Positions 12,414-39,352 are shown, counted from the stretch's first letter. The stretch is DNA of 64,000 nucleotides from an uncultured Collinsella sp. (GCA_959596495.1 CAUFXK010000001.1:2672-66671), one strand, 5' to 3'. The notes: generated from the letters alone by a model not told the origin. Translations and numbers: made by a program.

Positions 12414-12444
12414 GGTGTTGGTAACAACTAAACATGACATGCAA

Positions 12445-19639: not shown

Positions 19640-19650
19640 GCGAGTCTCTT

Positions 19651-20130
19651 ATGGCCAAATCCATTCAACATAACGTGGCCTACGTTGCCTGCGGAAGCGG
19701 TTGCGCCTCCGCGGGCGGCGACGCCCGCTGCAGCGAAGGCTGCATTGGCTGTGGCGCCTGCGTCACGGCCTGCCCCCACGGCGCCATTGCGCTGGTCGAT
19801 GGCATCGCTCGCGTGGATCGCTCAAAGTGCACGGGCTGTGGCCTGTGCGGCATGGCGTGCCCGCAGCGCGTGATTGCCTTCGTTCCCGGCTACCAGAACA
19901 TCCTGGTGCGCTGCAACAACACCGATAAGGGCGCCATTGCGCGCAAGATCTGTGACACGAGCTGCATCGGTTGCGGCATGTGCGCCAAAAAGTGCCCTGC
20001 CGGCGCTATCCGCATCGAGGACAACTGCGCCCATATCGACGGTGCGGACTGCCTGTCGTGCGGTATGTGCGCCGTCGTCTGCCCGCATGGCGCTATCCAC
20101 GACCGTACCGGCATCGCCGCCGGCGTGTAG
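19651..20130 (+). CDS. Polyferredoxin (four 4Fe-4S cluster motifs)
   Basis: 159 aa with four CxxCxxCxxxCP motifs (CIGCGACVTACP, CTGCGLCGMACP, CIGCGMCAKKCP, CLSCGMCAVVCP). Confidence 0.8.
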   Translation: MAKSIQHNVAYVACGSGCASAGGDARCSEGCIGCGACVTACPHGAIALVDGIARVDRSKCTGCGLCGMACPQRVIAFVPGYQNILVRCNNTDKGAIARKICDTSCIGCGMCAKKCPAGAIRIEDNCAHIDGADCLSCGMCAVVCPHGAIHDRTGIAAGV

Positions 20131-20142
20131 AAGGGAATCACC

Positions 20143-22920
20143 ATGGCACAGGAATTCACTTTTACCGTTAACGGCGTGGAGCGCACAACGACGCAGAACA
20201 AGCCGCTGCTGCGCTATCTGCGCGACGACCTGCACATCCACTCCGCCAAGGACGGCTGCTCCGAGGGTGCCTGCGGTACCTGCACCATTCACGTGGACGG
20301 CGCGGCCGTCAAGGCCTGCGTGCTGACCACCGCCCTTGCCGCCGGCCGTAACATCGTGACCGTCGAGGGCCTGCCCGAGGACGTGCGCGAGGCCTTTGTG
20401 TACGCCTTTGGCGCCGTGGGCGCCGTGCAGTGCGGCTTTTGCATCCCCGGTATGGTCATGGCGGGTGCGGCGCTGATCGCCGAGGACCCCGAGCCCACCG
20501 AGGAGCAGATCAAGTACGCCATTCGCGGCAATGTCTGCCGTTGCACCGGCTACAAAAAGATTATCGAGGGCATTTCGCTGGCTGCTGCGGTGCTCCGCGG
20601 CGAAAAGCAGATCGACGAGGACCTGGAACGCGGCGACGACTACGGCGTGGGCAAGCGCGCCTTCCGTATCGACGTGCGCAAGAAGGTGCTCGGCGAAGGC
20701 AAATACCCCGACGACATCGACGAGCTCGATCAGCCGGGTCTGACCTATGCCAGCGCCGTGCGCTCCAAGTATCCGCGCGCCCGTGTGCTCTCCATCGATA
20801 CCTCCAAGGCCGAGGCCCTGCCCGGTGTGGTGGGTATCCTGCGCGCCGAGGACGTGCCGGTCAACCAGGTCGGCCACCTTATCCAGGACTGGGACGTCAT
20901 GATCGCCCAGGGCGATATCACCCGCTGCGTGGGCGATGCCATCGTGCTGGTGGTCGCCGAGGACGAAGCGACGCTCGAGAAGGCCAAGAAGCTCGTAAAG
21001 ATCGATTACGAGCCGCTGGAGCCCGTGCGCAACATTGTCGAGGCCAGGGCTGCCGACGCTCCGCGCCTGCACGACAGTTTCTTTGCCTTTGGCAACACGG
21101 TGGAGCTCAAGGACAACGTGTGCCAGAGCCGTCACGTGACGCGCGGCGACGCCGCCAAGGCGCTGGCAGAGAGCGCGTTCACCGTGACGCAGCGCTTTAC
21201 CACGCCCTTTACCGAGCATGCCTTCTTGGAGCCCGAGTGCGCCGTTGCCTTCCCGTACAAGAACGGCGTCAAGGTGCAGTCGACCGACCAGGGTGCTTAC
21301 GACACGCGCAAAGAGTGCGCCCACATGTTTGGCTGGGACAACGAGCCCGAGCGCGTGGTCGTCGAGACCATGCTCGTGGGCGGCGGCTTTGGCGGTAAGG
21401 AGGACGTTTCGGTCCAGCACTTGGCCGCGCTCGCCGCATATAAGTTCCAGCGTCCTGTGAAGTGCAAGCTCACGCGTGCCGAGTCGCTCGCGTTCCATCC
21501 CAAGCGCCACGCCATGGACGGCACCTTTACGCTGGGTTGCGACGCCGAGGGCAACTTTACCGGCCTGGACTGCGAGATCAACTTTGACACCGGCGCCTAC
21601 GCGTCGCTGTGCGGCCCGGTGCTCGAGCGCGCCTGCACGCACGCCGTCGGCCCCTACAAGTACCAGAACACCGACATCCGCGGTTTTGGCTACTACACCA
21701 ACAACCCGCCCGCCGGTGCGTACCGCGGCTTTGGCGTGTGTCAGTCCGAGTTTGCACTCGAAAGCCTGATCGACCTGCTGGCCGAGAAGGTCGGCCTGGA
21801 TCCGTGGGAGATTCGTTACAGAAACGCCATCGAGCCGGGCGAGGTTTTGCCCAACGGCCAGATTGCCGACTGCTCCACGGCGCTTAAAGAGACACTGCTC
21901 GAGGTCAAGGATGCCTACTACGCGCATCCCGGCCACGCCGGTATCGCCTGCGCCATGAAGAACGCCGGCGTGGGCGTGGGCCTGCCCGATGCCGGCCGCT
22001 GCAAGATTCGCGTCGAGGGTGGCCGTGCCGTGGTCTACGCCGCCACGTCCGACATCGGCCAGGGCTGTAACACCGTCTTTTTGCAGGACGTTGCCGAGGC
22101 CTGCGGTCTGCCGCTGAGCTGCATCGCCAACGGCGAGTGCTCCACCGAGAACGCTCCCGACTCCGGCACCACGTCTGGCTCGCGTCAGACGGTCGTGACC
22201 GGCGAGGCTGTGCGCGGCGCCGCCTTCCTGCTGCGCGACGCCATGGTTGGCATCGAGGCCGGCAAGCCTGCGCCTACCGCCCCGGTGAGTGCGCATGGCG
22301 ACGGCGTCAAGATCGAGTACGACGACGGTCGCGCCTACCAGCTGCGCACGCAGGAACTCGTCGCCGGCCAGGGCATGCATCCTCAGGACCCCGCGGCCGC
22401 CATCAAGGCGCTCGAGGGATGCGAGTTTGGCTACGTGTATCTGGAGCCGACCGACAAACTGGGCGCCGACGTTCCCAACCCCAAGAGTCACATCTGCTAC
22501 GGCTTTGCCACACATGTGGTCATTCTGGATGATGACGGCCGCGTGAGCGAGGTCTATGCCGCACACGATTCCGGCAAGGTGGTCAACCCCATCTCCATCC
22601 AGGGTCAGATCGAAGGCGGCGTGCTCATGGGTATGGGCTATGCGCTGACCGAGGACTGGCCGCTCAAGGACTGCGTACCCCAGGCAAGGTACGGCACGCT
22701 CGGGCTGTTCCGTGCGCCCGAGATTCCGGATATCCACGCCATCTACGTGGAGAAGGACGAGCTGCTGCCCGTGGCATACGGCGGCAAGGGCATTGGAGAG
22801 ATCGCAACGATCCCCACGGCGCCCGCCGTGCAGAACGCCTACCGCGCATTCGACGGCAAGCTGCGTCCGGATCTGCCCATGGTGGATACGCCGTACAGCC
22901 GCGCTCGTCACCGCGGGTAG
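20143..22920 (+). CDS. xdhD: Molybdopterin-dependent hydroxylase with fused N-terminal [2Fe-2S] domains (XdhD/YgfN type; selenium-dependent xanthine dehydrogenase-like)
   Basis: 925 aa. Plant-type and second 2Fe-2S motifs 'CSEGACGTCTIHVDG' and 'QCGFCIPGMVM...CRCTGY', followed by an aldehyde-oxidase/xanthine-dehydrogenase Mo-binding domain (…GGGFGGKED…). Confidence 0.85.
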   Translation: MAQEFTFTVNGVERTTTQNKPLLRYLRDDLHIHSAKDGCSEGACGTCTIHVDGAAVKACVLTTALAAGRNIVTVEGLPEDVREAFVYAFGAVGAVQCGFCIPGMVMAGAALIAEDPEPTEEQIKYAIRGNVCRCTGYKKIIEGISLAAAVLRGEKQIDEDLERGDDYGVGKRAFRIDVRKKVLGEGKYPDDIDELDQPGLTYASAVRSKYPRARVLSIDTSKAEALPGVVGILRAEDVPVNQVGHLIQDWDVMIAQGDITRCVGDAIVLVVAEDEATLEKAKKLVKIDYEPLEPVRNIVEARAADAPRLHDSFFAFGNTVELKDNVCQSRHVTRGDAAKALAESAFTVTQRFTTPFTEHAFLEPECAVAFPYKNGVKVQSTDQGAYDTRKECAHMFGWDNEPERVVVETMLVGGGFGGKEDVSVQHLAALAAYKFQRPVKCKLTRAESLAFHPKRHAMDGTFTLGCDAEGNFTGLDCEINFDTGAYASLCGPVLERACTHAVGPYKYQNTDIRGFGYYTNNPPAGAYRGFGVCQSEFALESLIDLLAEKVGLDPWEIRYRNAIEPGEVLPNGQIADCSTALKETLLEVKDAYYAHPGHAGIACAMKNAGVGVGLPDAGRCKIRVEGGRAVVYAATSDIGQGCNTVFLQDVAEACGLPLSCIANGECSTENAPDSGTTSGSRQTVVTGEAVRGAAFLLRDAMVGIEAGKPAPTAPVSAHGDGVKIEYDDGRAYQLRTQELVAGQGMHPQDPAAAIKALEGCEFGYVYLEPTDKLGADVPNPKSHICYGFATHVVILDDDGRVSEVYAAHDSGKVVNPISIQGQIEGGVLMGMGYALTEDWPLKDCVPQARYGTLGLFRAPEIPDIHAIYVEKDELLPVAYGGKGIGEIATIPTAPAVQNAYRAFDGKLRPDLPMVDTPYSRARHRG

Positions 22921-22989
22921 AGTAGAGCGCGGACGACCATTGCTGACGAGCTGTTCGCGCTCAACATCAACTGCATATGCTGCGCCTTT

Positions 22990-23022
22990 GGCCCCGGCTC
23001 CATCGCGAGCCGGGGCCTTTTG
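22990..23022 (+). terminator. Rho-independent terminator after xdhD
   Basis: Perfect 11-bp GC-rich stem GGCCCCGGCTC / GAGCCGGGGCC, 6-nt loop, then TTTTGC. Confidence 0.75.
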
Positions 23023-23041
23023 CTTGGAGCACCTCCGCATA

Positions 23042-23338
23042 CGGAAACTGCGTCCCAGATTTCGGCTCCAGAATGGGATGCGCTTTCCGGAACGGCTATG
23101 AAGCGGAAACTGCATCCCAGAATCAGGTCTCAGAATGGGACACGCTTTCCGGATCAACCCTCAACCGGAAACTGCATCCCGGAATCCGCGCCTGGAATGG
23201 GACGCGCTTTCCCTTTGGCATGGGTTTCGGAAAGTATGTCCCGGAATTCGGCTTCAGAATGGGACGCGCTTTCCGGACAAGCCCTCAACCGGAAACTGCG
23301 TCCTGGATTCGGACCTCAGACCGGGACCCGCTTTCCGG
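23042..23338. repeat. 62-bp hairpin tandem repeat, array 1 (5 units)
   Basis: Units start at 23042, 23104, 23166, 23228 and 23290 (exact 62-bp phase). Unit: CGGAAACTGCGTCCCAGATTTCGGCTCCAGAATGGGATGCGCTTTCCGG plus a ~14-nt linker (…GCCCTCAAC). Confidence 0.95.
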
Positions 23339-23482
23339 AGCGCTTTTGCGGAGGTTGTTTTGCCTCCAAGGTTCTCCTCAATCGCCAACCTTAATGCGAA
23401 CTTTAACCTACATATGTTTGATAACTAACTGATGTGGAATAATTAGAGCGAACTACCAGCTGAGCGTTATGGAGGATTGAGG

Positions 23483-25609
23483 TTGAAAGAGAAGCTATTT
23501 CGATGGGTCGTAAAGCACCGCAAGCCCATCATCGCGTTTTATGCGATGGCGGCGCTGGTGTGCCTGTTCCTGCGCCAGTTTGTGGGCGTGAACTACGACA
23601 TTACGAGCTATCTGCCCGACGAGGCGGCGTCGACCGTTGCTCTCAATACCATGGGCGACGAGTTTAAGGGCGACATTCCCAACTGCCGTGTCATGGTGCC
23701 CAATGTCTCGATTACCCAGGCACTCAAATACAAGGACAAGATCAAAAAGGTCGACGGTGTCGAAGAGGTCTTGTGGCTCGACGATGCGGCCGACATCGAT
23801 CAGCCGCTTGCCACGCAGGATAAGAATACCGTCGAGACGTATTACAAAAAGAATAATGCCCTGTTTACGGTGACGGTCGATTCCGAGAAGGAGATCGAGG
23901 CCACCGATGCCATCCGCGATATCGTGGGCGACGAGGGCGCTATTACGGGCTCGGCCATGTCCAACGCGCTTGCGACCACGTCGACCGAGCAACAGATCAG
24001 CATCATTACGGTCGCCGTAATAGCGATCATCTTTGTGATTCTGGTTATCACGACCACCAGCTGGGCCGAGCCCATTCTGGTGCTGCTGGGCCTGGGCGTC
24101 TCGGTGTTTATCAACTGGGGCACAAACCTCATCTTTGGCGAGATCAGCTTTGTCACCAACTCCGCTGGCTCGATTTTGCAGGTTGCCATCGCACTGGACT
24201 TCTCGGTCTTTTTGCTGCACCGCTTTAACGAGGAACACGGCCATCACGGCAGCGTTGCCGAAGACATGGTGCAGTCGTGCTGCAAGTCCTCGGTCGCTGT
24301 GTTCTCGAGCGGCTGCACGGTCTGCATGGGCTTTATCGCGCTGACCGCCATGCAGTTTAAGATCGGCCCCGATCTTGGCCTTGCCCTCGCAAAGGGTATC
24401 GCCATCAGCTTGGTATCGGTCTTTACCTTTGTGCCCTCCATGTTCGTTCAGTTTGACGGCTTTGTGCAAAAGACGCAGCATAAGCCGTTTGTTCCGCCGC
24501 TGGGCAAGTTTGCCCGCTTGGTACTTAAGGTCTGCATTCCCGCTGCCGTCGTGATCCTTGCTGTGGTCTATCCCGCGCGCGTGGCATCGACCTCCAGCGA
24601 CATCAAGTACTACTACGGCACCTCGCATATTTTTGGTTCGGATACGCGCCTTGGCCAGGATATGGACAAGGTCAAGGAGATCTTTGGCAACTCCGATACC
24701 TACGTTGTGCTCGTTCCCCGCGGTGAGGTGAGCGAGGAGCAGGCACTCTCCAACGAGCTCAAGGCACTCCCCGAGGTCAAGTCTATCCAGAGCTACGTTG
24801 ACGTCGCGAGCCCCTATATCCCCACGGGCATGGCCGAGAAGAACGTGCTCGATCTGGTGGAGGGAGAGCATTACAGCCGCTTGGTGCTCACGGTTAGCGT
24901 GCCCTACGAGGGCCCGAGTACGTTCAAGTTGGTCAAGAAGATCCGCGGTATCGCTGATAAGCATTACCCGGGCAAGGCAATGCTCGCCGGCGAGGGCGTG
25001 AGCACCACCGACCTTAAGGACACCATCACCGTCGATAAGGGTAAGGTCGATCTTATCGCCGTCGTGGCTGTGTTCGTGGTGCTGCTGCTTGCCACCAAGT
25101 CCATCAGCCTGCCGGTCATCTTGGTGCTTGTGATTGAGACCTCGATCTGGGTCAACTTTGCCGCACCGCTCTACACCGGAATGCATGAGTTCTTTCTTGC
25201 CTATCTAATCGAGAGTTCCATCCAGTTGGGTGTCGCCGTCGACTACGGCATCCTGATCGCCGACCGTTATCGCGAGGACCGCAAGATTATGCACAAGCGC
25301 GAGGCGTTGCTCGAGACCATGGAGGCTTGCACGATTCCTGTCCTGACGTCTGGATCGGTCCTGCTCATTAGCGGTTTCTTGATCCATGCGATTTCGAGCC
25401 ACGGCGTGCTCAAGCAAATCGGCTGGTTCTTGGGTGTCGGTGTGAGCATCTCGCTGGTCGCCGTGCTCTTTGCGCTGCCGGGCTTCCTGTATGTGCTCGA
25501 CGGTCTTATTGGCAAGACCACGCTCAAAGCGCACTTTTTGCCTAAAGGTGCCCAGGCTCCGGTTTCGGATAGCGCCGAGGCACCCGTTGCGGACGGCTCC
25601 GCTCAGTAA
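23483..25609 (+). CDS. MMPL/RND-superfamily membrane transporter
   Basis: About 708 aa with two 6-TM bundles separated by soluble loops, an MMPL-type layout. TTG 23483 lies 6 nt after GGAGGA (23471-23476), whereas the track start TTG 23477 abuts the SD. Start is uncertain by 2 codons. Confidence 0.8.
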   Translation: MKEKLFRWVVKHRKPIIAFYAMAALVCLFLRQFVGVNYDITSYLPDEAASTVALNTMGDEFKGDIPNCRVMVPNVSITQALKYKDKIKKVDGVEEVLWLDDAADIDQPLATQDKNTVETYYKKNNALFTVTVDSEKEIEATDAIRDIVGDEGAITGSAMSNALATTSTEQQISIITVAVIAIIFVILVITTTSWAEPILVLLGLGVSVFINWGTNLIFGEISFVTNSAGSILQVAIALDFSVFLLHRFNEEHGHHGSVAEDMVQSCCKSSVAVFSSGCTVCMGFIALTAMQFKIGPDLGLALAKGIAISLVSVFTFVPSMFVQFDGFVQKTQHKPFVPPLGKFARLVLKVCIPAAVVILAVVYPARVASTSSDIKYYYGTSHIFGSDTRLGQDMDKVKEIFGNSDTYVVLVPRGEVSEEQALSNELKALPEVKSIQSYVDVASPYIPTGMAEKNVLDLVEGEHYSRLVLTVSVPYEGPSTFKLVKKIRGIADKHYPGKAMLAGEGVSTTDLKDTITVDKGKVDLIAVVAVFVVLLLATKSISLPVILVLVIETSIWVNFAAPLYTGMHEFFLAYLIESSIQLGVAVDYGILIADRYREDRKIMHKREALLETMEACTIPVLTSGSVLLISGFLIHAISSHGVLKQIGWFLGVGVSISLVAVLFALPGFLYVLDGLIGKTTLKAHFLPKGAQAPVSDSAEAPVADGSAQ

Positions 25610-25641
25610 CGTTTAACAAAGTAGTTGGAAGGAATACCGCA

Positions 25642-28071
25642 ATGCATACCCATACCACTGATACCGCTTCGAAAGAGCTCGACGCTCAGCGCGATCTTGT
25701 GCGCCGTCCGCGTAAGCGCATTGCCGCACTCGCTCTTGCCGCCGGTTTGACCGTGGCCCTTACCGTGCCCGGCGCCGTTGTATTCGCTGATGGCTTGGGG
25801 TCGACAAACGGGGCTTCGGCTGCGACCGAACAGGTCGCGACGAGCTCCAATAGCGCCGCGCCGGGTTACAAGAAAAACCAGGTCGTGTACGTTAAGACCG
25901 ATGCCGATGGTAATCGCACGGGCGTTTACGTGGTCAACAGCTTCGAGGCCAACAAGGGCGTCAAGATTGACGACTCCGGCACCTATGACAAGGTGACCAA
26001 TCTGTCGACGACTCAAAAGCTAACGGATGACAACGGGTCGGTTGCCGTTACAGGCCAGGGCGCGCAGGACTTTGTCTACCAGGGCGATCTGGACAAGAAC
26101 ACCCAGATGCCGTGGAACGTGACCGTGACATATCAGCTTGACGGTAAGGATATCGACGCCAAGGATCTGGCGGGCAAGAGCGGCAAGCTCACCATGAAGC
26201 TCAAGGTCGAAAAGAACGCGGACTATACCGGCGGCGATTATGCCGATAACTATCTGGTCCAGATTGCCGGCCAGCTTAAGGATACCGAAGCACACGATAT
26301 TGAGGCCGAGGGCGCCACGGTTGCAGCCAACGGCTCCAACACGCAGCTCACCTACATGGTGATTCCCGGTACCACCGGTGACTACACCATTACGACCGAT
26401 GTTGAGGACTTTGAGTTCGACGGCTGGCAGATTGTCGGCGTGCCGCTGAGCCTTGCCATCGATGTGGACTCAAGCAGCATGGATACGAGCCAGCTCGTGG
26501 AACTCTCTAACGGCATTGCCACGGCCAACAGCGGTGCGGGCCAGGTCGCCGACGGCGCCAAGACCCTCGCAGCCTCGCTCGCCACTGCCAATACCGGTGC
26601 CGGCACGCTGTCCAGTGGCGCTGCCACGCTTGCGGCGGGCACGAGCCAACTCAATGCGCAGGTTCCCACGCTGGTCGAAGGCGTGAGCAGCCTTAATACC
26701 GGTGCCGAGGGCGTTAATGCCGGCGCTGCAAAGCTCAAAGGCGGCGCGTCCGATCTTTCGACGGGCCTGACCAAGCTGCAGGGGAGTGCGCAGGAGATTT
26801 CGGGCGGCATCAGCGGAATTGCCGCCGGCTCTGATACGTTTGTTAATGCGCTGACGCTGGGCAAGCAGGATCAGGAGGAAAACCTTGCCAAGGCGCAGGT
26901 TGCAACCAAGACGGCGCAGGACGCCGTAACCGCTACGTCCGGTAACGCCTACGGCGCGCTGTACGGGCCGCAGGGCCTTACGGCGGCGCTCAATGGTGAG
27001 GGACAGTACCTTGCCGGCGCTCAGCAGGCGCTCGGCGGGGCGAAGCAGGTTGCAAGCGCCATGGGCAACGATGCCGCCAAGACCAACGCTGTAAGCGCTA
27101 AGGACGGCGCAGAGAGTGCCGCTGCGTCTATTGCTGCTGCCAAGGCAGCGGTCGCCGAGGCTCAGAACGCACTGGCGAATGCAGCCGACCTCGATGCCGC
27201 CAAGGCTGCGGCTGCCAAGCTAAGCGAGGCCACGGAGCAGCTGGATGCTGCCACCGCGAGCGCCGGTAGCGCTGCTGCCAGCGCGAGAGCGGCCGCCACA
27301 GCGGCTTCGGGTGCCGATGCGACGGGCCTTACCGCATATCTCGATGACGCGTCCAGCGCCGTTACGGGAGCCCAGGGCCTTAACGTCCAGGCGTCTCAGG
27401 GTCTAAAGGACGCCAAGCCCATGTTTGGCAAGCTTACCGACCAGGTTACGACGTTGGCTCAAGCGGCCGGCGCCCAGGGCGGCGCCCAGGGTGCCGTCGG
27501 CGCGCTCGATAGCGCCATTCAGGGCTACACTACCGTCCAGGATGGTCAGCAGCTGAGCCTGGCCAGGGCCATCGCCTATATGAACAGCGCGATCAACCCT
27601 GCAAGCCCCACGGCCGAGAACCCCGGTCTTGTCGCCGGCGTCGACTCTGCAGCCACGGGCGCGCGCCAGTTGAGCGACGGCGCCACGGCCCTTGCCGCGG
27701 GCACCGATCAGCTTGCCGCGGGCACGCAGCAGCTTAACGGTGCCACGCCCGCTCTCGCTAACGGCGTCTCGCAGCTTAATGGCGGTGCGGCGCAGCTCAA
27801 GGCGGGAGCAGCCACTCTTGCCAGCGGCATGAACCTCCTCTCGTCGGGTGCGGGTACGCTCGCCAGCGGCGCATCCGAGCTCGGCAGCGGTATGCAGGAG
27901 CTTACCGACCGTACGAGCGACCTCGATACCCAGGTCATCAACACCGTTAAGGACAAGATCGAGGAAATGCTCAACCCCAGCTTTACGCCGACGGACTTTG
28001 TTAACGGCGAGCAGGGCGGGCACATGAACCGCGTGCAGTTTGTCTATATGACGGGCGCCATTAGCAAGTAG
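25642..28071 (+). CDS. Secreted/membrane-anchored protein with YhgE/Pip-like X-X-X-Leu-X-X-Gly heptad repeats
   Basis: 809 aa. N-terminal anchor 'RIAALALAAGLTVALTVPGAVVFA', then a beta-rich domain. Two Ala/Gly-rich heptad blocks follow (e.g. GAKTLAASLATANTGAGTLSSGAATLAAGTSQLNAQ; GATALAAGTDQLAAGTQQLNGATPALANGVSQLNGGAAQLKAG). It starts 33 nt after the MMPL gene. Confidence 0.6.
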   Translation: MHTHTTDTASKELDAQRDLVRRPRKRIAALALAAGLTVALTVPGAVVFADGLGSTNGASAATEQVATSSNSAAPGYKKNQVVYVKTDADGNRTGVYVVNSFEANKGVKIDDSGTYDKVTNLSTTQKLTDDNGSVAVTGQGAQDFVYQGDLDKNTQMPWNVTVTYQLDGKDIDAKDLAGKSGKLTMKLKVEKNADYTGGDYADNYLVQIAGQLKDTEAHDIEAEGATVAANGSNTQLTYMVIPGTTGDYTITTDVEDFEFDGWQIVGVPLSLAIDVDSSSMDTSQLVELSNGIATANSGAGQVADGAKTLAASLATANTGAGTLSSGAATLAAGTSQLNAQVPTLVEGVSSLNTGAEGVNAGAAKLKGGASDLSTGLTKLQGSAQEISGGISGIAAGSDTFVNALTLGKQDQEENLAKAQVATKTAQDAVTATSGNAYGALYGPQGLTAALNGEGQYLAGAQQALGGAKQVASAMGNDAAKTNAVSAKDGAESAAASIAAAKAAVAEAQNALANAADLDAAKAAAAKLSEATEQLDAATASAGSAAASARAAATAASGADATGLTAYLDDASSAVTGAQGLNVQASQGLKDAKPMFGKLTDQVTTLAQAAGAQGGAQGAVGALDSAIQGYTTVQDGQQLSLARAIAYMNSAINPASPTAENPGLVAGVDSAATGARQLSDGATALAAGTDQLAAGTQQLNGATPALANGVSQLNGGAAQLKAGAATLASGMNLLSSGAGTLASGASELGSGMQELTDRTSDLDTQVINTVKDKIEEMLNPSFTPTDFVNGEQGGHMNRVQFVYMTGAISK

Positions 28072-28178
28072 GCAGCCATGCCCTTGTGGCGATTGGCATC
28101 GATAGCAAGTTTTGAGGGGTCGTCGGGCAGCGTCTCGACGGCCCCTCTTTGCTGCCGGCAGCTCCTACTGCCTCTCTG

Positions 28179-28445
28179 CGGAAAGTGCGTCCCGGAATTT
28201 GGCTCCAGAGTGGGACACGCTTTCCGGAACGGTTCTCATCCGGAAGCTGCGACCCGGAATCGACGCCCAGAATGGGACGCAGTTTCCGCCAGTCGCTCGT
28301 TTGGAAAATGCATCCCAGTTTGAGCGTCTATTCCGGGATGCCGTTTCCGCCGAAGGCCTCAACCGGAAAGCCCGTCCCACTCTGAACCCCGATTCCGGGA
28401 CGCGCTTTCCGCCGAAGGCCTCAAGCGGAAAGCGTGTCCCAGATT
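28179..28445. repeat. 62-bp hairpin tandem repeat, array 2 (4 units plus a truncated 5th)
   Basis: Units start at 28179, 28241, ~28302, 28364 and 28426 (the last is truncated after CGGAAAGCGTGTCCCAGATT). Same consensus and orientation as array 1. Confidence 0.95.
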
Positions 28446-28491
28446 GGCGGGCGTGAGGGCGCAGGTGTGGACGACTTGTCGCTCAACAGCC

Positions 28492-29490
28492 CTACAGGTC
28501 CACCTCGTTGAGCCATGTTGGCAGCGCGGTTTGCCTGACGCCTGCTGTCTGCAGCTTTTTCGCGAGCACTCCTGCCGAGCGGACCTCGTTCATGGTAAAA
28601 CGCAGCAGAGGGTGACCGTAAAGCGACAGATGCGCTTCGCGTTGCCGCTCTGCAACGAGCACCTCGGCCGCGGTTTGCCCGGCGAGTATGGTCTGGTCGG
28701 TATATTTGATGAGCCCGTCGAGCTCGCCCAGCGTGAGTTCCCGCGCCTGGCGCTTCCAGGCAAAGTCCGTTCGTATGGGTTTGGCCGAATCGAAGGGATC
28801 CGTTAGCTCGTATTGAAGCCAGTCGGGCGCAAAACCGGTCTCGATCATGACGGCTCGGGCGACCGATTCCCCGCCGCTCTCGGCGCGGACGTCGGCATAT
28901 CGAAGCGTTGTGAGGGCCGTACGAATCGCGCGATCATTGCGGGCGGTCGCTCGTTGCTCGACGGCCTCCATCAACTGCTCTCGCGTAAGACCGAGCTTTG
29001 AGATCGCCGAATCGGCAATGGGCATGCCGTCGGCAAAACCAGTTTGGAGCAGGCAATCTGTGGCCGTTTGGATAGGCGGCGTTACCGATATGCCGGCTCT
29101 GTGTATTGCTCCGGCCGGCTCAATCTGGTGCCGCTGAATATGCGCGCCCGGGCGAGCCGACGGCTTTGTGGCGCTGCAGACATGCACGACGTTCAGATGC
29201 CGCCACGAGACCTCGAGCCCCAGCAGGCAGGCGGCCGAAAACGAGCAGAACGTCCAATCGGGGTGGATGATCGCAAGGGCGCGAATAATCTCGCAATGAC
29301 GCTGCGCCCGGTTGAGCTCATCCCAGCGCATTTTGCGCGCGAACAATCCCGGCATGGGGGAGACGACCATGCTGCCGATGCGCCGAAGGAGCGCTTTTCG
29401 GATCGCCGCACTCGGGGGAATCAGACAGCGCCCCTCTTGTTCGGCTTGGTTCAACAGCTGGTCGATGAGTTGGTCATTGCAATGGGTCAT
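28492..29490 (-). CDS. AbiEi-like N-terminal domain / DUF559 (Vsr-like PD-(D/E)XK) C-terminal domain protein
   Basis: 332 aa with a strong SD (AAAAGGAGG). 'FCSFSAACLLGLEV' resembles the AbiEi_4-type 'SH-SAA-LHGL' motif. The C-terminal 'SGGESVARAVMIETGF...RTDFAW...LGELDGLIKY' resembles the DUF559 E...D...E-DG-K pattern. No partner toxin gene is adjacent. Confidence 0.5.
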   Translation of the reverse strand: MTHCNDQLIDQLLNQAEQEGRCLIPPSAAIRKALLRRIGSMVVSPMPGLFARKMRWDELNRAQRHCEIIRALAIIHPDWTFCSFSAACLLGLEVSWRHLNVVHVCSATKPSARPGAHIQRHQIEPAGAIHRAGISVTPPIQTATDCLLQTGFADGMPIADSAISKLGLTREQLMEAVEQRATARNDRAIRTALTTLRYADVRAESGGESVARAVMIETGFAPDWLQYELTDPFDSAKPIRTDFAWKRQARELTLGELDGLIKYTDQTILAGQTAAEVLVAERQREAHLSLYGHPLLRFTMNEVRSAGVLAKKLQTAGVRQTALPTWLNEVDL

Positions 29491-29784
29491 GAGCTACCGC
29501 CTCCTTTTGGGTAGCAAAAACGTATCAGCTGGAACTTGCCTCTCAGCTGACCAAAAGCTGACCAAAATCTAACCATGCAGGTAGGTGGCCTGTTTTCGGC
29601 GACATTTTTTGAAGCTGAATCGGTGGGCGGTAATCGGCGACCGTGAACGGTAGCGTGTTATGAAGCCTTGGTAAGTTTCGGGACGTGTACTTTTTGAAAA
29701 AGAGCATTCTATCTGCTGTTTTGTGTTTCTGGATCGCATGTTTGAAGGCCTGTGATAAGGGTGGCGAATCGTCGTCTGTGTCGG

Positions 29785-29895
29785 CGGAAACTGTGACCCG
29801 GAATTGCCGCTCAGAACGGGACGCGCTTTCCGAATGGCATGTTTGGCGGAAGCTACGGCCCAGTTTTTTGCACCAGAACGGGATACATTTTCCGG
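29785..29895. repeat. 62-bp hairpin tandem repeat, array 3 (2 units)
   Basis: Units start at 29785 and 29847 (CGGAAACTGTGACCCGGAATTGCCGCTCAGAACGGGACGCGCTTTCCG...). Confidence 0.9.
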
Positions 29896-29950
29896 AACGG
29901 TTCGCGTGCGGTGGTGTACCGCCCCTTTTGCGTGCGCCACTTGTCGAATT

Positions 29951-30002
29951 ACGTTATAGCTAGCTATATTATAGGAAGGTATAATATAGCTAGCTATAAC
30001 GT
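29951..30002. promoter_or_regulatory. Perfect 23-bp inverted repeat (operator/hairpin candidate) 17 nt upstream of the DUF234 ATPase start
   Basis: ACGTTATAGCTAGCTATATTATA - GGAAGG - TATAATATAGCTAGCTATAACGT. It is AT-rich, contains TATAAT-like hexamers and is unlike the surrounding GC-rich DNA. Confidence 0.6.
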
Positions 30003-30019
30003 AAAGGAAGGATAGCACT

Positions 30020-31399
30020 ATGTTTATCGGAAGAACAGCGGAAATGTCCGAGCTCAATCGTCTGTATGGCACGGGCTCCTTTGAGATGCCTGTGATTTAC
30101 GGGCGTCGTCGTGTGGGCAAAACCCGCCTTATCACAGAGTTCATTCAAGGCAAGAATGCTATTTACTTTCAAGCTCGTCGTACCAATGCAGAGGCAAACC
30201 TGCACGGCTTTAGCCAGGCGATACTTGCAGGCTCGGTTGGTGCTGCAGGCGTGTCGTTTCGTAGCTTTGACGAGGCGCTCGATGCATTGGCCACCATGGC
30301 TCGCACGGAACGTTTGATTGTCGTGATTGACGAGTATCCCTATCTCGCCCAATCGAATCCCGAGATCAGCTCGTTGCTGCAAGACAAGATCGATCACCTG
30401 TACAAAGAGACCAAGCTCATGCTGATTCTATGCGGCTCGTCTCTTTCGTTTATGGAGGAACAGGTATTGGGCTACGAGAGCCCACTATACGGTAGGCGTA
30501 CGGCCCAGTTTAAGATCATGCCGCTCGATTTTACGACGACCCTCGGCCTGTGGCAGAGCATGGGTCGCGAAGACGCAGCGGTTTGCTATGGCATGACGGG
30601 CGGCATTCCTGCATATATCGAGAAAGTCGATCCTACCGTATCGCTCAAGGGCAACATCAAGCGTCTTTTTCTTACCCCTACGGGTTATCTCTTTGAAGAG
30701 CCGAGTAACCTGCTATTGCAAGAGTGCCGCAATCCCGAGCAATATGATGCGATCGTGCAAGCAATTGCTCAGGGGCGCTCGAAGATCTCGGAGATTGCGA
30801 GCTCTACGGGAATCCCTGCGAGCAACGTAAAGAGCTATGTGGATAAGCTGGCGTCGCTTGGGATTGTCGAGCGCGAGCTGCCCCTAAACGAGACGAGCAA
30901 TAAGCGAGCCGTGTATCTGCTGAGCGACCAGATGTTTAGGTTCTGGTACAAGTTTGTTCCGCAGAACATCGGGCTGATTCAAAACGATATGGCCGAGATG
31001 GCGTATAAGCGCATTGAGCCGCACGTATCGGATTACATGGGTACGGTCTTTGAGCTCATATGCAGACAATATGTGTACGAACTCGCGCGCGCGGGCCAGC
31101 TCGATGTGGTTCCGGCGAGCGTCGGGCGCTGGTGGGGGACGGATAATCGCACGCATACGCAGGAAGAAATCGACTTGATTGTTGACGATGGCGAGGGCAC
31201 TGCTCTGTTTGCGGAGTGCAAATGGCGCAATGAACCGGTGGGCGAAGACGTGCTGCAAAAGCTCGTGCACCGAAGCGAGCTCTTTAGACGGCAACGAAAA
31301 AGCTATGCACTATTCTCAAAAAGCGGCTTTACGCAGGGATGTCGGGATGCCGCGGAGAGTAGGGGAGACGTCAAGCTGATCTCGTTTGCCGAGATGTGA
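30020..31399 (+). CDS. AAA-type ATPase (archaeal-ATPase fold) with C-terminal DUF234
   Basis: 459 aa. 'FIGRTAEMSELNRLY', Walker A 'GRRRVGKT', Walker B 'IVVIDEYPYL', and C-terminal 'EEIDLIVDDGEGTALFAECKW' typical of DUF234. Confidence 0.75.
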   Translation: MFIGRTAEMSELNRLYGTGSFEMPVIYGRRRVGKTRLITEFIQGKNAIYFQARRTNAEANLHGFSQAILAGSVGAAGVSFRSFDEALDALATMARTERLIVVIDEYPYLAQSNPEISSLLQDKIDHLYKETKLMLILCGSSLSFMEEQVLGYESPLYGRRTAQFKIMPLDFTTTLGLWQSMGREDAAVCYGMTGGIPAYIEKVDPTVSLKGNIKRLFLTPTGYLFEEPSNLLLQECRNPEQYDAIVQAIAQGRSKISEIASSTGIPASNVKSYVDKLASLGIVERELPLNETSNKRAVYLLSDQMFRFWYKFVPQNIGLIQNDMAEMAYKRIEPHVSDYMGTVFELICRQYVYELARAGQLDVVPASVGRWWGTDNRTHTQEEIDLIVDDGEGTALFAECKWRNEPVGEDVLQKLVHRSELFRRQRKSYALFSKSGFTQGCRDAAESRGDVKLISFAEM

Positions 31400-31505
31400 G
31401 GACGGGGTAGCTCTGCTCGAGGGCAAGAGCCTGTCCTCGAATTGCTGGAATAGGGCCCATTCTTTTGTCGTGTTGGCTGTCGGCGGAATGCCGGCGGAAA
31501 GCCTG

Positions 31506-31707
31506 CGGAAAGCGTGTCCCAGATTTCGGCCCCAGAGTGGGATGCCGTTTCCGAATCGGCCCTCAAGCGATCCCCGGCGTCCCAGATTATGGCTCCAAAC
31601 CGGGGTGCGCTTTCCCAGCGGTGCCTCTACCGGAAACCGCATCCCGGATTCGACGCTCGGAATGGGATTCGTTTTCCGGCAGAGGCCTCAAGTGGAACAT
31701 GCGCCCC
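31506..31707. repeat. 62-bp hairpin tandem repeat, array 4 (3 units plus partial)
   Basis: Units start at 31506, 31568 and 31631, with a partial unit at 31692. The first 20 nt of unit 1 are identical to the truncated last unit of array 2. Confidence 0.95.
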
Positions 31708-31780
31708 AGGACCCGCAACGGCGCCGCCACGCAACTTTGTGTCCGCGCGGGCGGCTATGTTTACTGCAACGTAGCCATTC

Positions 31781-32440
31781 GTGGAAAGGACGGATGCCGT
31801 GGCAACGGATAAGACCGGTTATGTGAGCGTTGGTGCACAGATCGAGGATAAGGCCATGCCCGATCTCGTGATCTTTAGCATTGGCTTTGGCGGCCGCTTT
31901 GATAGCAAGGAGGCGTGCCTGGACGATTACAACGCCGATCGCGCCAAGGTCGCTGCCGCGCTGGCGCCCTTTGGTCTGGATGATGAGTTAACATGTCGCC
32001 GGTACACCTGCTATGCGCAGACGACGCGCAAAAGGGCAATCATCGTGGGCTACGACTACTATGCGTACGGCACGGTTGCCGCGCCTGTCGATTCGATTGA
32101 CTGTGCGGCTGTGTGGACGGCGCTCAACGCCTGCGGATCGCATGCCGACATGAACGTTCGATTTGAACTTGCAGATGAGCGCGCGGCGGAGGACGTCCTG
32201 ATTGCCCGCGCTGTCGAGCGCGCTCGCGGTAATGCGCAGGCGCTTGCTGCGGCGGCGGGGACTGAGCTGGGCGGCATCAAGCATATCTCGTATAACAGCC
32301 GACCGGGGGATTATGGCAGGGTGTACTGCGCTGCCATGGGCGTTCCCGATGGGGCATCCGGAGGCCTTGAGGAAACGGTGCTGGATCCGGAACCCATCGA
32401 GGTCGAGTGCTCCGTCGACGTCGAGTGGTGGCTGGAATAG
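31781..32440 (+). CDS. SIMPL-domain (DUF541/BP26-like) protein
   Basis: 219 aa, GTG start. It opens with '…GYVSVGAQIEDKAMPDLVIFSIGF' and closes with '…PEPIEVECSVDVEWWL', following the SIMPL pattern (V-x-G-x-A…PD-x-A…; C-terminal beta strands). No signal peptide is seen. Confidence 0.5.
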   Translation: MERTDAVATDKTGYVSVGAQIEDKAMPDLVIFSIGFGGRFDSKEACLDDYNADRAKVAAALAPFGLDDELTCRRYTCYAQTTRKRAIIVGYDYYAYGTVAAPVDSIDCAAVWTALNACGSHADMNVRFELADERAAEDVLIARAVERARGNAQALAAAAGTELGGIKHISYNSRPGDYGRVYCAAMGVPDGASGGLEETVLDPEPIEVECSVDVEWWLE

Positions 32441-32582
32441 CGGACGAGTCGGGCGAGCGTTGAGCCTTCATGACTGAAAAACCATTTGTTAAACCTGGCA
32501 CTCGTGGGTAGAATAAAGCTGACGGCAGCCCAAGTGGTGGAAAGCTGGGCAGCGCCGTTACTCACTTTAAGGGGTCAATGCT

Positions 32583-32708
32583 TTAACGGCGTCGACCCCT
32601 CTTGTTTTGCTTCGAACACTGCTTGAGTGCCTCGGAAAGCCCGATAAGCGCCGTGAGGAGCGAGGCCAGAGCGGTCAGGAGCCTCACGAAATCAATCAGA
32701 TCGGTCAT
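32583..32708 (-). CDS. Unlisted 41-aa hydrophobic/basic peptide (type I toxin- or holin-like small membrane protein candidate)
   Basis: Minus-strand ATG at 32708 lies 6 nt after GGGAGGTG. Translation: MTDLIDFVRLLTALASLLTALIGLSEALKQCSKQNKRGRRR*. It has one hydrophobic helix plus a Lys/Arg tail. The stop is embedded in a stem-loop (GGGGTC...GACCCC, about 32571-32599). It is too short for the ORF track. Confidence 0.3.
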   Translation of the reverse strand: MTDLIDFVRLLTALASLLTALIGLSEALKQCSKQNKRGRRR

Positions 32709-32984
32709 GGGCATCACCTCCCATCGTATGGAGGGCGCTGCCCGGCACATGAACTGCCGTCAACAACAACTATTCTATCAAATCGCAGCTAGAAATACGA
32801 ATATATGTTCGCTTATAATGGGGCATCGGGCTGCTGACTCTTTTAGGGCTATCCATACCGTGTGCAGACATCGGGCGCGGCGTTGCGGTACGTTTCATGT
32901 CCGCACGGGCGCCTATCCTTACGGCAATGTAGCCGCCTATGTAGCTATGTAGCAAGCGGCAGGCAACGGAGAAAGGCCATAACC

Positions 32985-33719
32985 GTGTCAGCTGAAAAGA
33001 CGCCGTGTATCTCGGCTATCGATACGACGAACTTTGCGCGCCAGATTGTGCTGGATTTTGAGTTTGCGCCGGTGCCAAAGCAGCGCCAGCGCCGTGGACT
33101 GCGCAACGAGATTATCGAGGTCGGCGCCGTCAAGCTCGATTACCACGGCAACGTTATGGGCGAGTTCTCGCAGTTTGTACAGACGGAATTTACCGAAGGC
33201 GTTGCGTTTCCCGTCCGCGAGCTCACAGGGATATCGGCCGTGGACACCGCGATGGCCGATCCGCTCTACACGGTGATCAAAAGGCTCAGCGATTGGATCG
33301 GTCGCTACTCCGCCCAGGTGGTTTGCTGGAGCGGGGCGGATCGTCGACAGCTTTTGACCGAATGCCAGGCAAAGCACATCGATTTTTCCGCATTTCCTAC
33401 GGGCTGGGCCGACCTGCAGGCGTTTTACACCTCGATCATGGACGTGGGTAGCCACGGGCGCGTCTCTTTGAGTGACGCGGCAACGTGGTTTGGTATCGAG
33501 TTCGACGAGTCGACGGGCCACGCCCACAGCGCCCTGGCCGATGCGCGTGTAACCGCCAAGTTGCTCAAGCAGATGATGGAGGGTGACTATCACGTGAGTC
33601 CGCGCGTCCAGGAAGTCCGCCAACGGTGGGGGATAGGCGAGCGAACCCAGACGCGCCTTTCCAGCAAGTGCCCCGAGCTGGGTGACCTGCTGCTAAAGCT
33701 GAAGGCGGAGGGGAGGTAG
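32985..33719 (+). CDS. DEDDh (DnaQ-like) 3'-5' exonuclease domain protein
   Basis: Exo I 'IVLDFEF', Exo II region 'VVCWSGADRRQL', Exo III 'HSALADARVTAKL' (H-x4-D). GTG 32985 lies 8 nt after GGAGAAAGG. The upstream part of ORF 32862..33719 is Arg/Cys-rich and unlikely to be coding. Confidence 0.7.
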   Translation: MSAEKTPCISAIDTTNFARQIVLDFEFAPVPKQRQRRGLRNEIIEVGAVKLDYHGNVMGEFSQFVQTEFTEGVAFPVRELTGISAVDTAMADPLYTVIKRLSDWIGRYSAQVVCWSGADRRQLLTECQAKHIDFSAFPTGWADLQAFYTSIMDVGSHGRVSLSDAATWFGIEFDESTGHAHSALADARVTAKLLKQMMEGDYHVSPRVQEVRQRWGIGERTQTRLSSKCPELGDLLLKLKAEGR

Positions 33720-33942
33720 GAGGCTCATTTGGCGACAAGCGGACGGAATGGTTGCGCGAAGGATTCTAGGATCAGCAGCAGAAGACTGCGTTTGGGATCC
33801 TACTCAAGGACGCGCTGACACTCGCTGGGACCAAGCAGGTCAAGAGCGTGGACATCGAGATGGCTTCCATTATCGAAGAGCGGCTTGCTAACATGATTCG
33901 CTGGACGGATAGGCAGAGACCCGTGACGCTGCGTGCGTCATC

Positions 33943-39064: not shown

Positions 39065-39067
39065 GTT

Positions 39068-39312: not shown

Positions 39313-39352
39313 TATCCTAGTGCTAAAACAGCACGTAATAAGGGGTACGCTT

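Follow-up and report, generated by a model that had tools for sequence, protein, structure and literature searches.

The 62-bp repeats that occur in the window, a 64-kb stretch of Collinsella DNA with 94% identity to C. aerofaciens, probably represent a family of interspersed mosaic repeats that is restricted to Collinsella, works like the enterobacterial BIMEs and consists of putatively protein-recognised DNA. The family is non-coding, was found here only in Collinsella and is apparently undescribed so far. Most likely it is a vertically inherited element that would be read as sequence by a putative sequence-specific protein, and this protein would most likely act on DNA, either as duplex or as a transiently extruded hairpin. 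By analogy, it would use the arrays as gyrase, IHF and HU use BIMEs.

Arrays in the window and design of the repeat unit

A search of the 64 kb using nhmmer and a profile of the units identified 14 full or near-full units and one partial unit in four clusters, and a second partial unit was seen by eye (1-2 partial units in all). This agrees with a preliminary description, which had listed four intergenic clusters with about 15 units. No further unit was detected by nhmmer in the rest of the 64 kb; all four arrays are located within 9 kb and the other 55 kb are free of units. A pattern with 23 specified bases gave 9 matches in the window compared with 0 in 100 shuffles.

Array 1 (23042..23339; none of the arrays is assigned to a strand) begins 15 nt past the intrinsic terminator of xdh (20143-22920), which encodes a selenium-dependent xanthine dehydrogenase. 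According to the terminator scan this terminator extends over 22990..23027 on the plus strand and consists of an 11-bp GC-rich stem followed by TTTTGCTTGG. The array comprises 5 units, all with the loop in '+' orientation (23042-23091, 23104-23152, 23166-23213, 23228-23276 and 23290-23339; nhmmer E values 1e-11 to 5e-16). TRF reports a period of 62 with 4.8 copies, and the phase of exactly 62 bp between the unit starts was confirmed. Array 2 (28179..28446; nhmmer) adjoins the 3' end of a 332-aa gene (28492-29490, minus strand) and contains four units, two in '+' (28179-28228 and 28241-28288) and two in '-' orientation (28303-28349 and 28363-28411), and a left arm only at 28426-28446. Array 3 (29785..29896; nhmmer) consists of two '+' units (29785-29833 and 29847-29896) and is flanked by the starts of two divergent genes, the 332-aa gene and that of a PDC-S27 ATPase (30020-31399). 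Array 4 (31506..31707; nhmmer), with the PDC-S27 ATPase gene on one side and the SIMPL gene (31781-32440) on the other, comprises units at 31506-31554, ~31568-31616 (degenerate) and 31631-31679; a degenerate last left arm at 31693-31707 was read by eye.

Some statements of the preliminary description had to be modified. The arrays do not all have the same orientation, as the nhmmer matches in array 2 with the reversed loop demonstrate. All arrays are intergenic and mostly 3' of genes, with the exception of array 3 between divergent starts. The spurious ORFs across the arrays, which are rejected by a codon-usage gene caller, exist at 22977-23432 and 31386-31826; the third ends at 28456 as described, but begins at 28112 and not at 28078. 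Not every cassette of the accessory stretch has arrays at its borders: this holds for the first three, and the defence genes further downstream (31781-40675) have no arrays between them.

The building block of the family is a 15-nt arm, CGGAAASYGYRTCCC, which recurs about every 31 bp in alternating orientation. Between the arms, an asymmetric 18-nt "loop" (RGAAT-N7/8-CAGAAT) and a quasi-palindromic 14-nt linker (consensus ~nWTGRSGCCYCWAn), which is palindromic in its own right, take turns, and arms, loop and linker add up to the 62-bp period of the palindromic unit of ~48 nt. Two extended arm types can be distinguished, the a-arm that runs on into RGAAT and the b-arm that runs on into ATTCTG. 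Each unit starts with CGGAAA and ends with TTTCCG. In the 434 units among the matches listed, the unit-to-unit spacing is 59-64 bp with a mode of 62, irrespective of orientation; some arrays contain units of both orientations. The same linker classes occur at different sites, so the linkers are motifs of the family and not site-specific target duplications.

The regular 62-bp period resembles a CRISPR repeat plus spacer, and three one- or two-gene cassettes in the defence island are flanked by arrays, as would be expected if the units were integron attC sites marking gene cassettes. Both interpretations are highly improbable. Unique spacers are absent and the full 62 bp are family sequence, which bears out the earlier statement that the repeat is not a CRISPR; in addition, several units stand at each junction and their orientations are mixed, housekeeping loci have arrays as well, and on inspection of the sequence the linker does not fit the R'/R'' consensus of attC. 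Among the island genes covered by the domain scan there was no integrase domain and no cas gene, apart from a DEDDh exonuclease of generic type and weak matches of the ATPase to CARF/Csa3-like HTH domains.

Distribution and inheritance of the arrays

The exact pattern was found at >120 genome loci, essentially all of them from Collinsella/Coriobacteriaceae among the matches listed, and in only 1 of 2.9 million viral contigs. The census amounts to at least 434 units in at least 133 arrays at ~20 independent sites among the matches listed, and the statistics on location given below rest on these sites. The arrays contain 1-9 units and occupy fixed intergenic positions that are orthologous across many Collinsella species; besides the accessory region, they are found next to housekeeping genes (rpoB, dnaK, hom and hisS, among others). 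Thus, the mapping bears out the earlier claim of a dispersed family without a name, and none of the catalogued families was matched in the Rfam searches.

A purely local, VNTR-like tandem duplication in the accessory region would be in line with the clustering of all units of the window within 9 kb and with the different numbers of units in different species. Its probability is practically nil: the family is present at the ~20 unrelated sites in >100 Collinsella genomes (matches listed), a 0.9-Mb record from a second strain contains it at 8 places, and neighbouring units are not especially alike. Presence at other sites and in the other strain refutes this explanation.

Convergent gene pairs flank 10 of the 20 independent sites, compared with 25% expected. 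A terminator-like hairpin is located between gene end and array in 13 of 21 gaps (about 7 are strong as judged by eye). Of 27 units that adjoin the 3' end of a gene, 19 have the loop in the orientation of the nearest upstream gene, a feature that would not be needed for a purely symmetric site in duplex DNA; the xdh site shows the loop pattern ++++---. Arrays are also found upstream of genes, as array 3 and the rpoB and dnaK sites indicate.

The xdh locus allowed us to follow the history of two arrays. The terminator hairpin of xdh is found ahead of the array in another 10 Collinsella species, and in nine other species a single array of 4-9 units is all that separates xdh from the 332-aa gene. 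C. aerofaciens TSDC17.2-1.1 has the first 2.6 units of array 1 at the corresponding position, and the units of array 2 can be matched one by one to their orthologues in the single arrays of L085, L071, L103 and others. Comparison of these sequences indicates that array 1 (xdh-proximal) and array 2 (distal) are one ancestral array, which was split by a 4.8-kb cassette (23340..28178, plus strand). Pfam/NCBIfam domain assignments identify an MMPL/RND transporter (23477-25609) and an 809-aa heptad-repeat protein (25642-28071) in this cassette, followed by a terminator-like hairpin (28116-28154). Orthologues of array 3 contain 1-4 units, the smaller ones being in-register deletion hybrids, and array 4 has orthologues in L077 and L061. 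Array length therefore varies between species, as the comparison proposed in the preliminary description revealed for the xdh and array 3 sites, and unit variants are common to different arrays. Taken together, these data show that the arrays were passed on vertically across Collinsella species, that whole units were lost by in-register recombination and that units were exchanged between neighbouring arrays. Insertions of IS elements and of gene cassettes into arrays were observed as well.

Several of these properties would also suit a selfish, non-autonomous mobile element (MITE, REPIN or REP) without host function, which depends on a transposase encoded elsewhere and favours insertion beside itself or beside terminators. 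The repeats are interspersed, genus-restricted, bounded by inverted repeats and placed in "safe" 3' intergenic DNA, array starts are often 6-26 nt past a terminator, and the array region upstream of rpoB is present in some strains and absent in others. REP sequences are known targets of IS insertion (PMC3733652), and in L001 the gene of an IS3-family transposase directly follows a truncated third unit. Nevertheless, we regard this reading as doubtful. Neither identical nor near-identical copies were detected at different sites in the best cross-site comparison of units (median identity 85%, maximum 94%), 292 distinct cores were counted among 406 units, and with an identity of ~71% over the whole period, a unit resembles its neighbour no more than it resembles a randomly chosen unit (71.5% vs 71.3%). 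A REPIN or an active MITE was rejected on the basis of this cross-site identity, the number of distinct cores and the lack of master copies. Furthermore, the sites are orthologous in many species, the conserved blocks have been retained in situ, with saturation at the other positions, an unpaired GTAG/CGTC tag is absent, and the linkers are motifs of the family. No transposase recurs beside the arrays. A tblastn search with one E. coli RayT sequence as the single query found nothing at E<1 in 988 kb of array-bearing Collinsella DNA, and for RAYT in the plasmid collection, no Collinsella was among the organism names in the matches listed.

Hairpin folding and conservation of sequence blocks

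The left and right arms are inverse complements, as had been proposed. In RNA folding of 286 distinct units, collected across many genomes, 94% adopted the predicted 16-bp hairpin. The mean folding energy is -20 kcal/mol compared with -11 for shuffles. Such a hairpin could be part of a structured RNA at the 3' ends of genes, acting as tandem terminators, stabilising mRNA as 3'-exonuclease barriers, or giving rise to small RNAs by processing. The position of most arrays 3' of genes and the preference of the loop for the direction of the upstream gene are in line with this explanation. RNA-seq contigs from other strains extend from a highly expressed gene past its terminator into the array, so at least read-through transcription exists, and units are present in RNA contigs of high depth.

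Analysis of the pairing pointed in the opposite direction. The mutual information between the arms (0.01-0.04) was the same as in shifted controls. A dedicated tool revealed neither excess pairing (85.9% of cells paired vs 85.4 +/- 0.5 in shuffles) nor an increased covariation score (0.172 vs 0.169), and no covariation was found across the linker. A-C mismatches are as frequent as expected from independent arms. We infer from these alignments that the pairing of the arms is not under selection. The two strands fold equally well (-20.0 and -19.8 kcal/mol), both orientations occur in one array, the arrays frequently lie past a genuine intrinsic terminator and they are found upstream of genes, too. 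None of the units was called in the terminator scan; they run on into CCGG and the linker and contain no T-run that would provide a U-tract. Searches against Rfam gave no match at the gathering threshold in the whole window, including the Collinsella-1 motif, and only chance-level matches in array 1 with E up to 10. The tandem terminator or structured-RNA array considered in the preliminary description is consequently unsupported: compensatory substitutions are absent, both strands fold alike and the U-tract is lacking. We judge the structured-RNA explanation unlikely, and folded RNA is probably not the acting form of the repeat.

In contrast to the pairing, the sequence itself is conserved in six blocks, GGAAA, CCC, GA.T, C..A, GGGA and TTTCC. 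Between species, orthologous units differ by 1.5% in the blocks and by 11% in mid-stem, loop core and linker, which corresponds to an about 7-fold lower change in the blocks; these estimates of selection contain some ascertainment bias, because the profile and the pattern used for finding the units include the blocks. The minor-allele fraction in alignments anchored on the flanks amounts to 0.043 for the blocks, 0.088 for the flanks and 0.21-0.23 for loop and linker. The mid-stem columns retain only the purine/pyrimidine class (transitions 9.4%, transversions 1.6%). To judge from these substitution patterns, the six blocks appear to be held by purifying selection in every copy. A periodicity of conservation of 10.33 bp has modest support (p = 0.014), and the variation of the spacing by +/-2 bp argues against strict helical phasing.

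Conserved blocks in combination with arm pairing that appears unselected suggest that the repeat is most likely read as DNA sequence by a protein, the absence of selection on pairing being the argument for reading at the DNA level. Since the units still fold, they may be recognised as an extruded hairpin, as ssDNA or as RNA.

Comparison with known repeat systems

The earlier assignment to REP/BIME-type elements holds for architecture and location, but strict membership in the REPs fails. A REP is defined as a 20-40-bp palindrome with an unpaired GTAG or CGTC at one end (PMC3733652). Like REPs and REPINs, the Collinsella repeats are clustered extragenic palindromes, often in inverted pairs, and they share with REPs the location between convergent or unidirectional genes and the restriction to a genus or species (PMC3733652). 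However, REPs have stems of 5-13 bp plus the tag, whereas the Collinsella unit is ~48 nt long and untagged; CGTC appears only within the stem (positions 10-13) in a minority of copies. A GTAG/CGTC-tagged REP was ruled out on these grounds. REPs of the GTAG type flank a RAYT gene, for which the search of the 988 kb gave no match, REPIN populations hold many identical master copies, which are absent here, and Actinobacteria are not named among the phyla with tagged REPs in the survey (PMC3733652).

The NIMEs of Neisseria are intergenic arrays as well, with RS units of ~50-150 bp bounded by dRS3 inverted repeats, and are linked to recombination and to integration sites of gene cassettes or phages. 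Neither their sequence nor their unit size nor their host agrees with the Collinsella repeats. The dRS3 element is a tagged REP of 20 bp, classed as CGTC-1 and found in large mosaic clusters (PMC3733652). No link of the Collinsella arrays to phage integration was seen in the 2.9 million viral contigs. MIRUs resemble the family in being actinobacterial intergenic tandem repeats of ~50-100 bp at tens of loci with VNTR behaviour. MIRUs are non-palindromic direct repeats in operons, which often overlap short ORFs, while the Collinsella unit is palindromic.

The closest counterpart is the BIME, with an agreement at the level of architecture only, namely alternating arms, conserved alternating spacers and extragenic location. 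The Collinsella repeat lacks sequence similarity to REPs and thus homology to the BIMEs of E. coli, its host is an actinobacterium (Coriobacteriia) and its copies are far fewer (~8 arrays per 0.9 Mb). Moreover, the 15-nt arm alone forms no hairpin and the palindrome requires two successive arms. BIMEs are bound by gyrase, IHF, Pol I and HU (PMC2817692, PMC3733652 and, in part, general knowledge). As in BIME-2 of E. coli, (Y-S-Z2-s)n, short motifs are regularly spaced in alternating orientation and exist in two variants, Y and Z there and the a- and b-arms here. Both systems have two alternating classes of conserved spacers and form arrays of variable length in 3' intergenic regions between convergent or co-directional genes, with copy numbers that differ between strains.

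Repeat units and their distribution

The repeat was seen in the sequence at all four clusters at which it had been claimed, 23042-23339 (array 1), 28179-28446 (array 2), 29785-29896 (array 3) and 31506-31707 (array 4). Searching the whole 64-kb window with a unit profile yielded 14 full or near-full units and one left-arm fragment in these clusters and zero further units in the rest of the window. For array 1, TRF returned the expected period of 62 bp with 4.8 copies. A search pattern limited to the 23 best-conserved bases (CGGAA-N7-CCC-N-GA-N-T-N7-C-NN-A-NN-GGGA-NN-C-NN-TTTCC) matched nine units in the window versus none in 100 shuffles. The ORFs running through the arrays are present, but they were suspected to be spurious and the codon-usage gene caller turned them down. 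The statement in the preliminary description that all arrays have the same orientation was not quite right, because two units of array 2 (28303-28349 and 28363-28411) carry the loop, the asymmetric segment between the two arms, in reverse. Array 1 starts 15 nt past the strong intrinsic terminator of xdh, the gene for a selenium-dependent xanthine dehydrogenase, and array 2 is preceded by a terminator-like hairpin (28116-28154).

Two other repeats were noticed in the window. A GGGCGT/GGGCGC tandem repeat of 6 or 12 bp at 41404-41456 lies inside a minus-strand ORF of 360 aa (40713-41795) and encodes a low-complexity stretch. The second small repeat type (5917-6065) is a 27-bp tandem, GGGACGTTC(C/T)TTTTCTGTC(G/T)GCAGTTT, in 2.4 copies, and CACTCATTGGGGACAGACTTA-ATGAGTG stands twice ahead of it; the 27-mer occurs again beside a repeat array in another Collinsella genome (locus L012, 3751-3777).

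Alignment of 292 distinct units revealed the invariant blocks GGAAA (positions 2-6), CCC (13-15), G17-A18, T20, C28, A31, GGGA (34-37) and TTTCC (43-47). Columns 8-11, 16, 33 and 38-41 vary almost solely by transitions, and the loop core (21-27) is near-random. The centre-to-centre spacing of the units is 59-64 bp with a mode of 62 (165 of 301) for every orientation combination. The 14-nt linker follows a separate quasi-palindromic consensus with GGCC at the centre, which is alike whatever the orientation of the neighbouring units, and several linker classes were found again at different sites. On sequence grounds, an array is best seen as a 15-nt arm, CGGAAASYGYRTCCC, that alternates in orientation every ~31 bp with two spacer types in turn. 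The arms are extended either by RGAAT (a-type) or by ATTCTG (b-type), and a "+" unit consists of an a-arm facing a b-arm. A helical-phase reading was not relied on, with p = 0.014 for the 10.33-bp harmonic and a spacing that varies by +/-2 bp.

The window is Collinsella DNA, with 94-96% identity to a record of C. aerofaciens TSDC17.2-1.1 at 8048-23185 and 39194-45716. In a species-representative genome collection the exact pattern was found in at least 120 stretches, and the matches listed were essentially all from Collinsella or Coriobacteriaceae. One of 2.9 million viral contigs in IMG/VR contained the pattern, and a phage link of the repeat family was set aside on this single match. Among the matches listed, 121 loci contained 133 arrays with 1-9 units each, 434 units in all, and flank homology reduced these arrays to about 20 independent genomic sites, each of which was found in as many as 23 species. 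The family is therefore dispersed, as the preliminary description had proposed, and occurs across the genus; it is no local duplication, and its sites are mostly orthologous between species. No called gene was present on one side of 42 of the 133 arrays, mostly near a sequence or contig end. Eight places match the pattern in the 0.9-Mb record of C. aerofaciens TSDC17.2-1.1, of which the census covered two stretches of 27-50 kb. This record, NZ_OY725717.1 (loci L001 and L122), goes under the name "plasmid 6", yet is full of housekeeping genes, with core genes (the xdh cluster, thrB/thrC, asd, dxs, pflB and map) aboard, and is evidently part of a chromosome entered as a plasmid.

Folding, pairing and constraint

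Folded as RNA, single units formed the expected hairpin in 94% (+ strand) and 88% (- strand) of cases, with mean energies of -20.0 and -19.8 kcal/mol, respectively, versus -11 for shuffles; as DNA the mean fold energy was -10 versus -5. Whole arrays folded with z-scores of -4.2 and -5.6, one per strand. Folding of each unit had been proposed from the complementarity of its arms; that this pairing is maintained was contradicted by a lack of compensatory substitutions, a finding which the preliminary description had named as refuting. Mutual information between the arms at variable stem pairs was 0.01-0.04, not above that of shifted partners, and the combinations at pair 11/38 (G-T 96, G-C 75, A-T 60, A-C 56) were exactly independent. 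Analysis of 94 distinct units with a dedicated covariation tool gave 85.9% paired cells versus 85.4 +/- 0.5% after shuffling (80 of 500 shuffles as high) and a covariation score of 0.172 versus 0.169 (170 of 500 as high). No covariation was seen either for pairing across the linker, between a right arm and the left arm of the following unit, and this alternative hairpin was rejected. The arms are complementary because both hold one degenerate consensus, not because pairing is maintained. An explanation of the hairpins as a structured RNA or a terminator is disfavoured by the missing covariation, by the symmetry of the two strands in folding, by the placement of the arrays after terminators and by units that have no U-tract. 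Rfam contained nothing relevant at the gathering threshold for the whole window or at E<=10 for array 1, and the family had likewise been left without a name at first.

Orthologous units of different species (622 pairs) differed at 1.5% of the block positions and at 11% of the mid-stem, loop-core and linker positions. In flank-anchored alignments, which lean less on the unit profile, the mean minor-allele fraction was 0.043 in the blocks, 0.088 in the flanks, 0.17 in the mid-stem and 0.21-0.23 in loop core and linker; since the units were ascertained with a block-containing pattern and profile, the block contrast is somewhat exaggerated. The mid-stem showed 9.4% transitions and 1.6% transversions versus 7.4% and 3.8% in loop and linker; its transitions are thus close to the neutral rate, and transversions are 2.4-fold rarer. 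What the mid-stem keeps is the purine/pyrimidine class, not pairing. In all arrays, the transition-only columns vary almost exclusively between C and T or between G and A where CpG dinucleotides once stood, and double mutants to TA were depleted at positions 10-11 (8 versus 33 expected), 38-39 (14 versus 31.5) and 40-41 (7 versus 14.5). Together these features are a signature of CpG decay, which may reflect 5-methylcytosine at CG, CCGG or GCGC in Collinsella.

Neighbouring units were 71.5% alike versus 71.3% for random pairs, and an origin of the units by local duplication was rejected, because neighbours are no closer than random pairs. The best identity between units of different sites had a median of 85% and a maximum of 94%, and near-identical units common to two sites were not found. 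Constrained blocks, a saturated remainder, dissimilar neighbours and the lack of near-identical sites describe old, individually constrained copies and are at odds with a burst of transposition or duplication in recent times. A selfish MITE or REPIN is disfavoured: identical copies are absent, the sites are orthologous between species, constraint acts in place and no recurrent transposase accompanies the arrays. With one E. coli RayT query no homologue was detected in 988 kb of array-bearing Collinsella DNA, and Collinsella was absent from the organism names listed for the matches in a plasmid collection. Local duplication, CRISPR and attC were all excluded as the identity of the arrays.

Gene context, transcription and rearrangement

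Among the matches listed, 10 of the 20 independent sites lie between convergent, seven between co-directional and three between divergent genes, against a background of 25%, 50% and 25% in the intergenic regions of the same loci. The gaps between gene end and array contain a T-tailed hairpin in 13 of 21 cases, about seven of them clear terminators, and the arrays are therefore often outside the transcription unit proper. Array neighbours elsewhere are ordinary genes, among them rpoB, dnaK, hom, hisS-hisG, ogt, thiE and feoB. In two RNA-seq data sets from other C. aerofaciens strains, contigs of a highly expressed nucleotidyl-transferase gene cross the terminator into the array, and units were found in high-depth RNA contigs; these direction-less contigs show the presence of transcripts, not their ends. 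Some read-through transcription into arrays thus exists. The nucleotidyl-transferase gene is the upstream neighbour of the array at the rpoB site (locus L046). At this locus a 245-bp stretch (6765-7009), comprising the three-unit array upstream of rpoB with ~50 bp before and ~35 bp after it, is replaced by 24 nt in one data set from another strain, so that the region is polymorphic between strains.

At the xdh site of all species "+" units stand beside xdh and "-" units beside the convergent gene, in the patterns ++---, ++++--- and ++++++---. Of the units adjacent to a gene 3' end, 19 of 27 have the loop co-oriented with that gene. This non-random loop orientation is the main observation that a duplex-DNA reading leaves unexplained. 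The convergent gene itself (332 aa; 28492-29490, minus strand) is flanked in the window by arrays on both sides in inverted orientation and is conserved at the xdh site in nine species. Its product had no match in Pfam, NCBIfam or PADLOC and no paralogue near other arrays, and it was rejected as a general partner of the repeat on these grounds. By eye, its sequence is reminiscent of actinobacterial proteins with an AbiEi-like N-terminal part and a DUF559-like nuclease.

Nine other species possess one array of 4-9 units between xdh and the 332-aa gene, and a tenth (L082) has kept the array after xdh with a different gene beyond. In the window, a 4.8-kb segment (23340-28178) with genes for an MMPL transporter and for a heptad-repeat protein of 809 aa interrupts this ancestral array, and the units on either side of it are orthologous to units of the undivided arrays. 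In another species (L002) an array also comes after the 809-aa gene, but in other surroundings. Array 3 consists of four, three, two or one units depending on the species, and its shorter versions are exact in-register hybrids of the left part of unit A with the tail of unit C or D, which shows that units are lost by recombination or slippage between them. Particular unit variants occur in different arrays of one neighbourhood across species, which points to recombination between arrays. At the xdh site of C. aerofaciens TSDC17.2-1.1 the array ends inside the third unit (L001, position 15203); an IS3-family transposase gene begins ~50 bp further on at 15256 (within 15043-16095) and is followed by an IS21 element. 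Only one flank was orthologous in 34.8% of the comparisons at arrays versus 16.2% at nearby control intergenic sites, an enrichment of synteny breakpoints that is weak evidence, given the non-independence of the pairs and the dominance of a single site. In one species the 3' half of the xdh terminator with its T-tract (GCGAGTCGGGGCCTTTTGTTTGGAG) is copied beside array 3 (L103, ~2650-2745), which hints at a rearrangement with breakpoints at arrays.

The strain-variable stretch 23186-39194 (flanks to 42551) has the purine-catabolism cluster with xdh on one side and dpaL/ygeY on the other, and C. aerofaciens TSDC17.2-1.1 contains IS3, IS21 and AbiEi/AbiEii instead. Judged by its predicted genes, it is a defence island with a PDC-S27 ATPase (30020-31399), a DEDDh exonuclease (32862-33719), a BnzB-like protein (33943-36456), a GmrSD type IV restriction enzyme (36941-39064) and PDC-S01 (39080-40675). 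The arrays had been regarded as borders of every cassette; this holds for the first three island cassettes, and the remaining ones are without arrays. A 15-bp inverted pair, TTATAGCTAGCTATA ... TATAGCTAGCTATAA (29955-29999), closely precedes the PDC-S27 ATPase gene and surrounds a TATAAT-like box; seven other species have kept it, and it resembles an operator that overlaps the promoter.

Interpretation and comparison with known systems

The best-supported reading of the arrays is a DNA element of BIME-like build that is inherited vertically. A predicted protein would recognise the conserved blocks as sequence, and the ability to form hairpins would follow from a two-fold symmetry in this recognition or would be used only transiently. 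Inter-array recombination, unit loss and insertion of cassettes and IS elements occur at the arrays; protein binding and a physiological role in topology or in read-through control between convergent genes are suggested by analogy with BIMEs. A more elaborate reading, which we consider rather unlikely in all its parts jointly, takes the arrays as host-selected protein-binding lattices of Collinsella that would serve as topology and read-through buffers between convergent genes and also as a recombination platform. The blocks, on arms ~31 bp apart, would be read by a putative sequence-specific protein, for example a topoisomerase, a nucleoid protein or a domesticated recombinase, and mirror-symmetric arrays between convergent transcription units could take up supercoiling or stop read-through. 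As a side effect, the arrays could provide portable homology for swapping defence and accessory cassettes in and out, analogous to an integron, but without an integrase.

The unusual points are the selection on blocks copy by copy without selection on pairing and the mirror-image orientation between convergent genes. Purifying selection in place on the blocks and none on pairing makes "palindromic repeat" separable from "hairpin function", and it would point to a putative DNA-binding partner that could be fished directly. Collinsella is an abundant and very diverse actinobacterium of the human gut. Its repeat accounts for many contig breaks and spurious ORF calls in assemblies, offers VNTR-like markers for strain typing and indicates sites at which accessory and defence cassettes are swapped.

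The searchable literature on Collinsella yielded no description of the repeat, whether as a REP, a MITE, a tandem repeat or Collinsella-1. A 50-nt Collinsella-only candidate near diverse genes, HMP2_10134, has been reported (Fremin & Bhatt 2021), and comparison by flanking genes alone gave no obvious match at the array sites. The family is a real, genus-wide, interspersed mosaic palindromic repeat for which no prior description was found, with HMP2_10134 as a possible exception. Tagged REPs are 20-40 bp long with an unpaired GTAG or CGTC end and, for the GTAG class, a RAYT, and Actinobacteria are not among the phyla named as carriers in the survey of these elements (PMC3733652); the Collinsella repeat falls outside this REP definition. 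With the BIMEs of E. coli the arrays have the architecture in common without homology (PMC2817692), but the Collinsella arm itself is no hairpin. Their link to mosaic intergenic regions and to the exchange of cassettes is shared with the NIMEs of Neisseria, and their VNTR behaviour with MIRUs.
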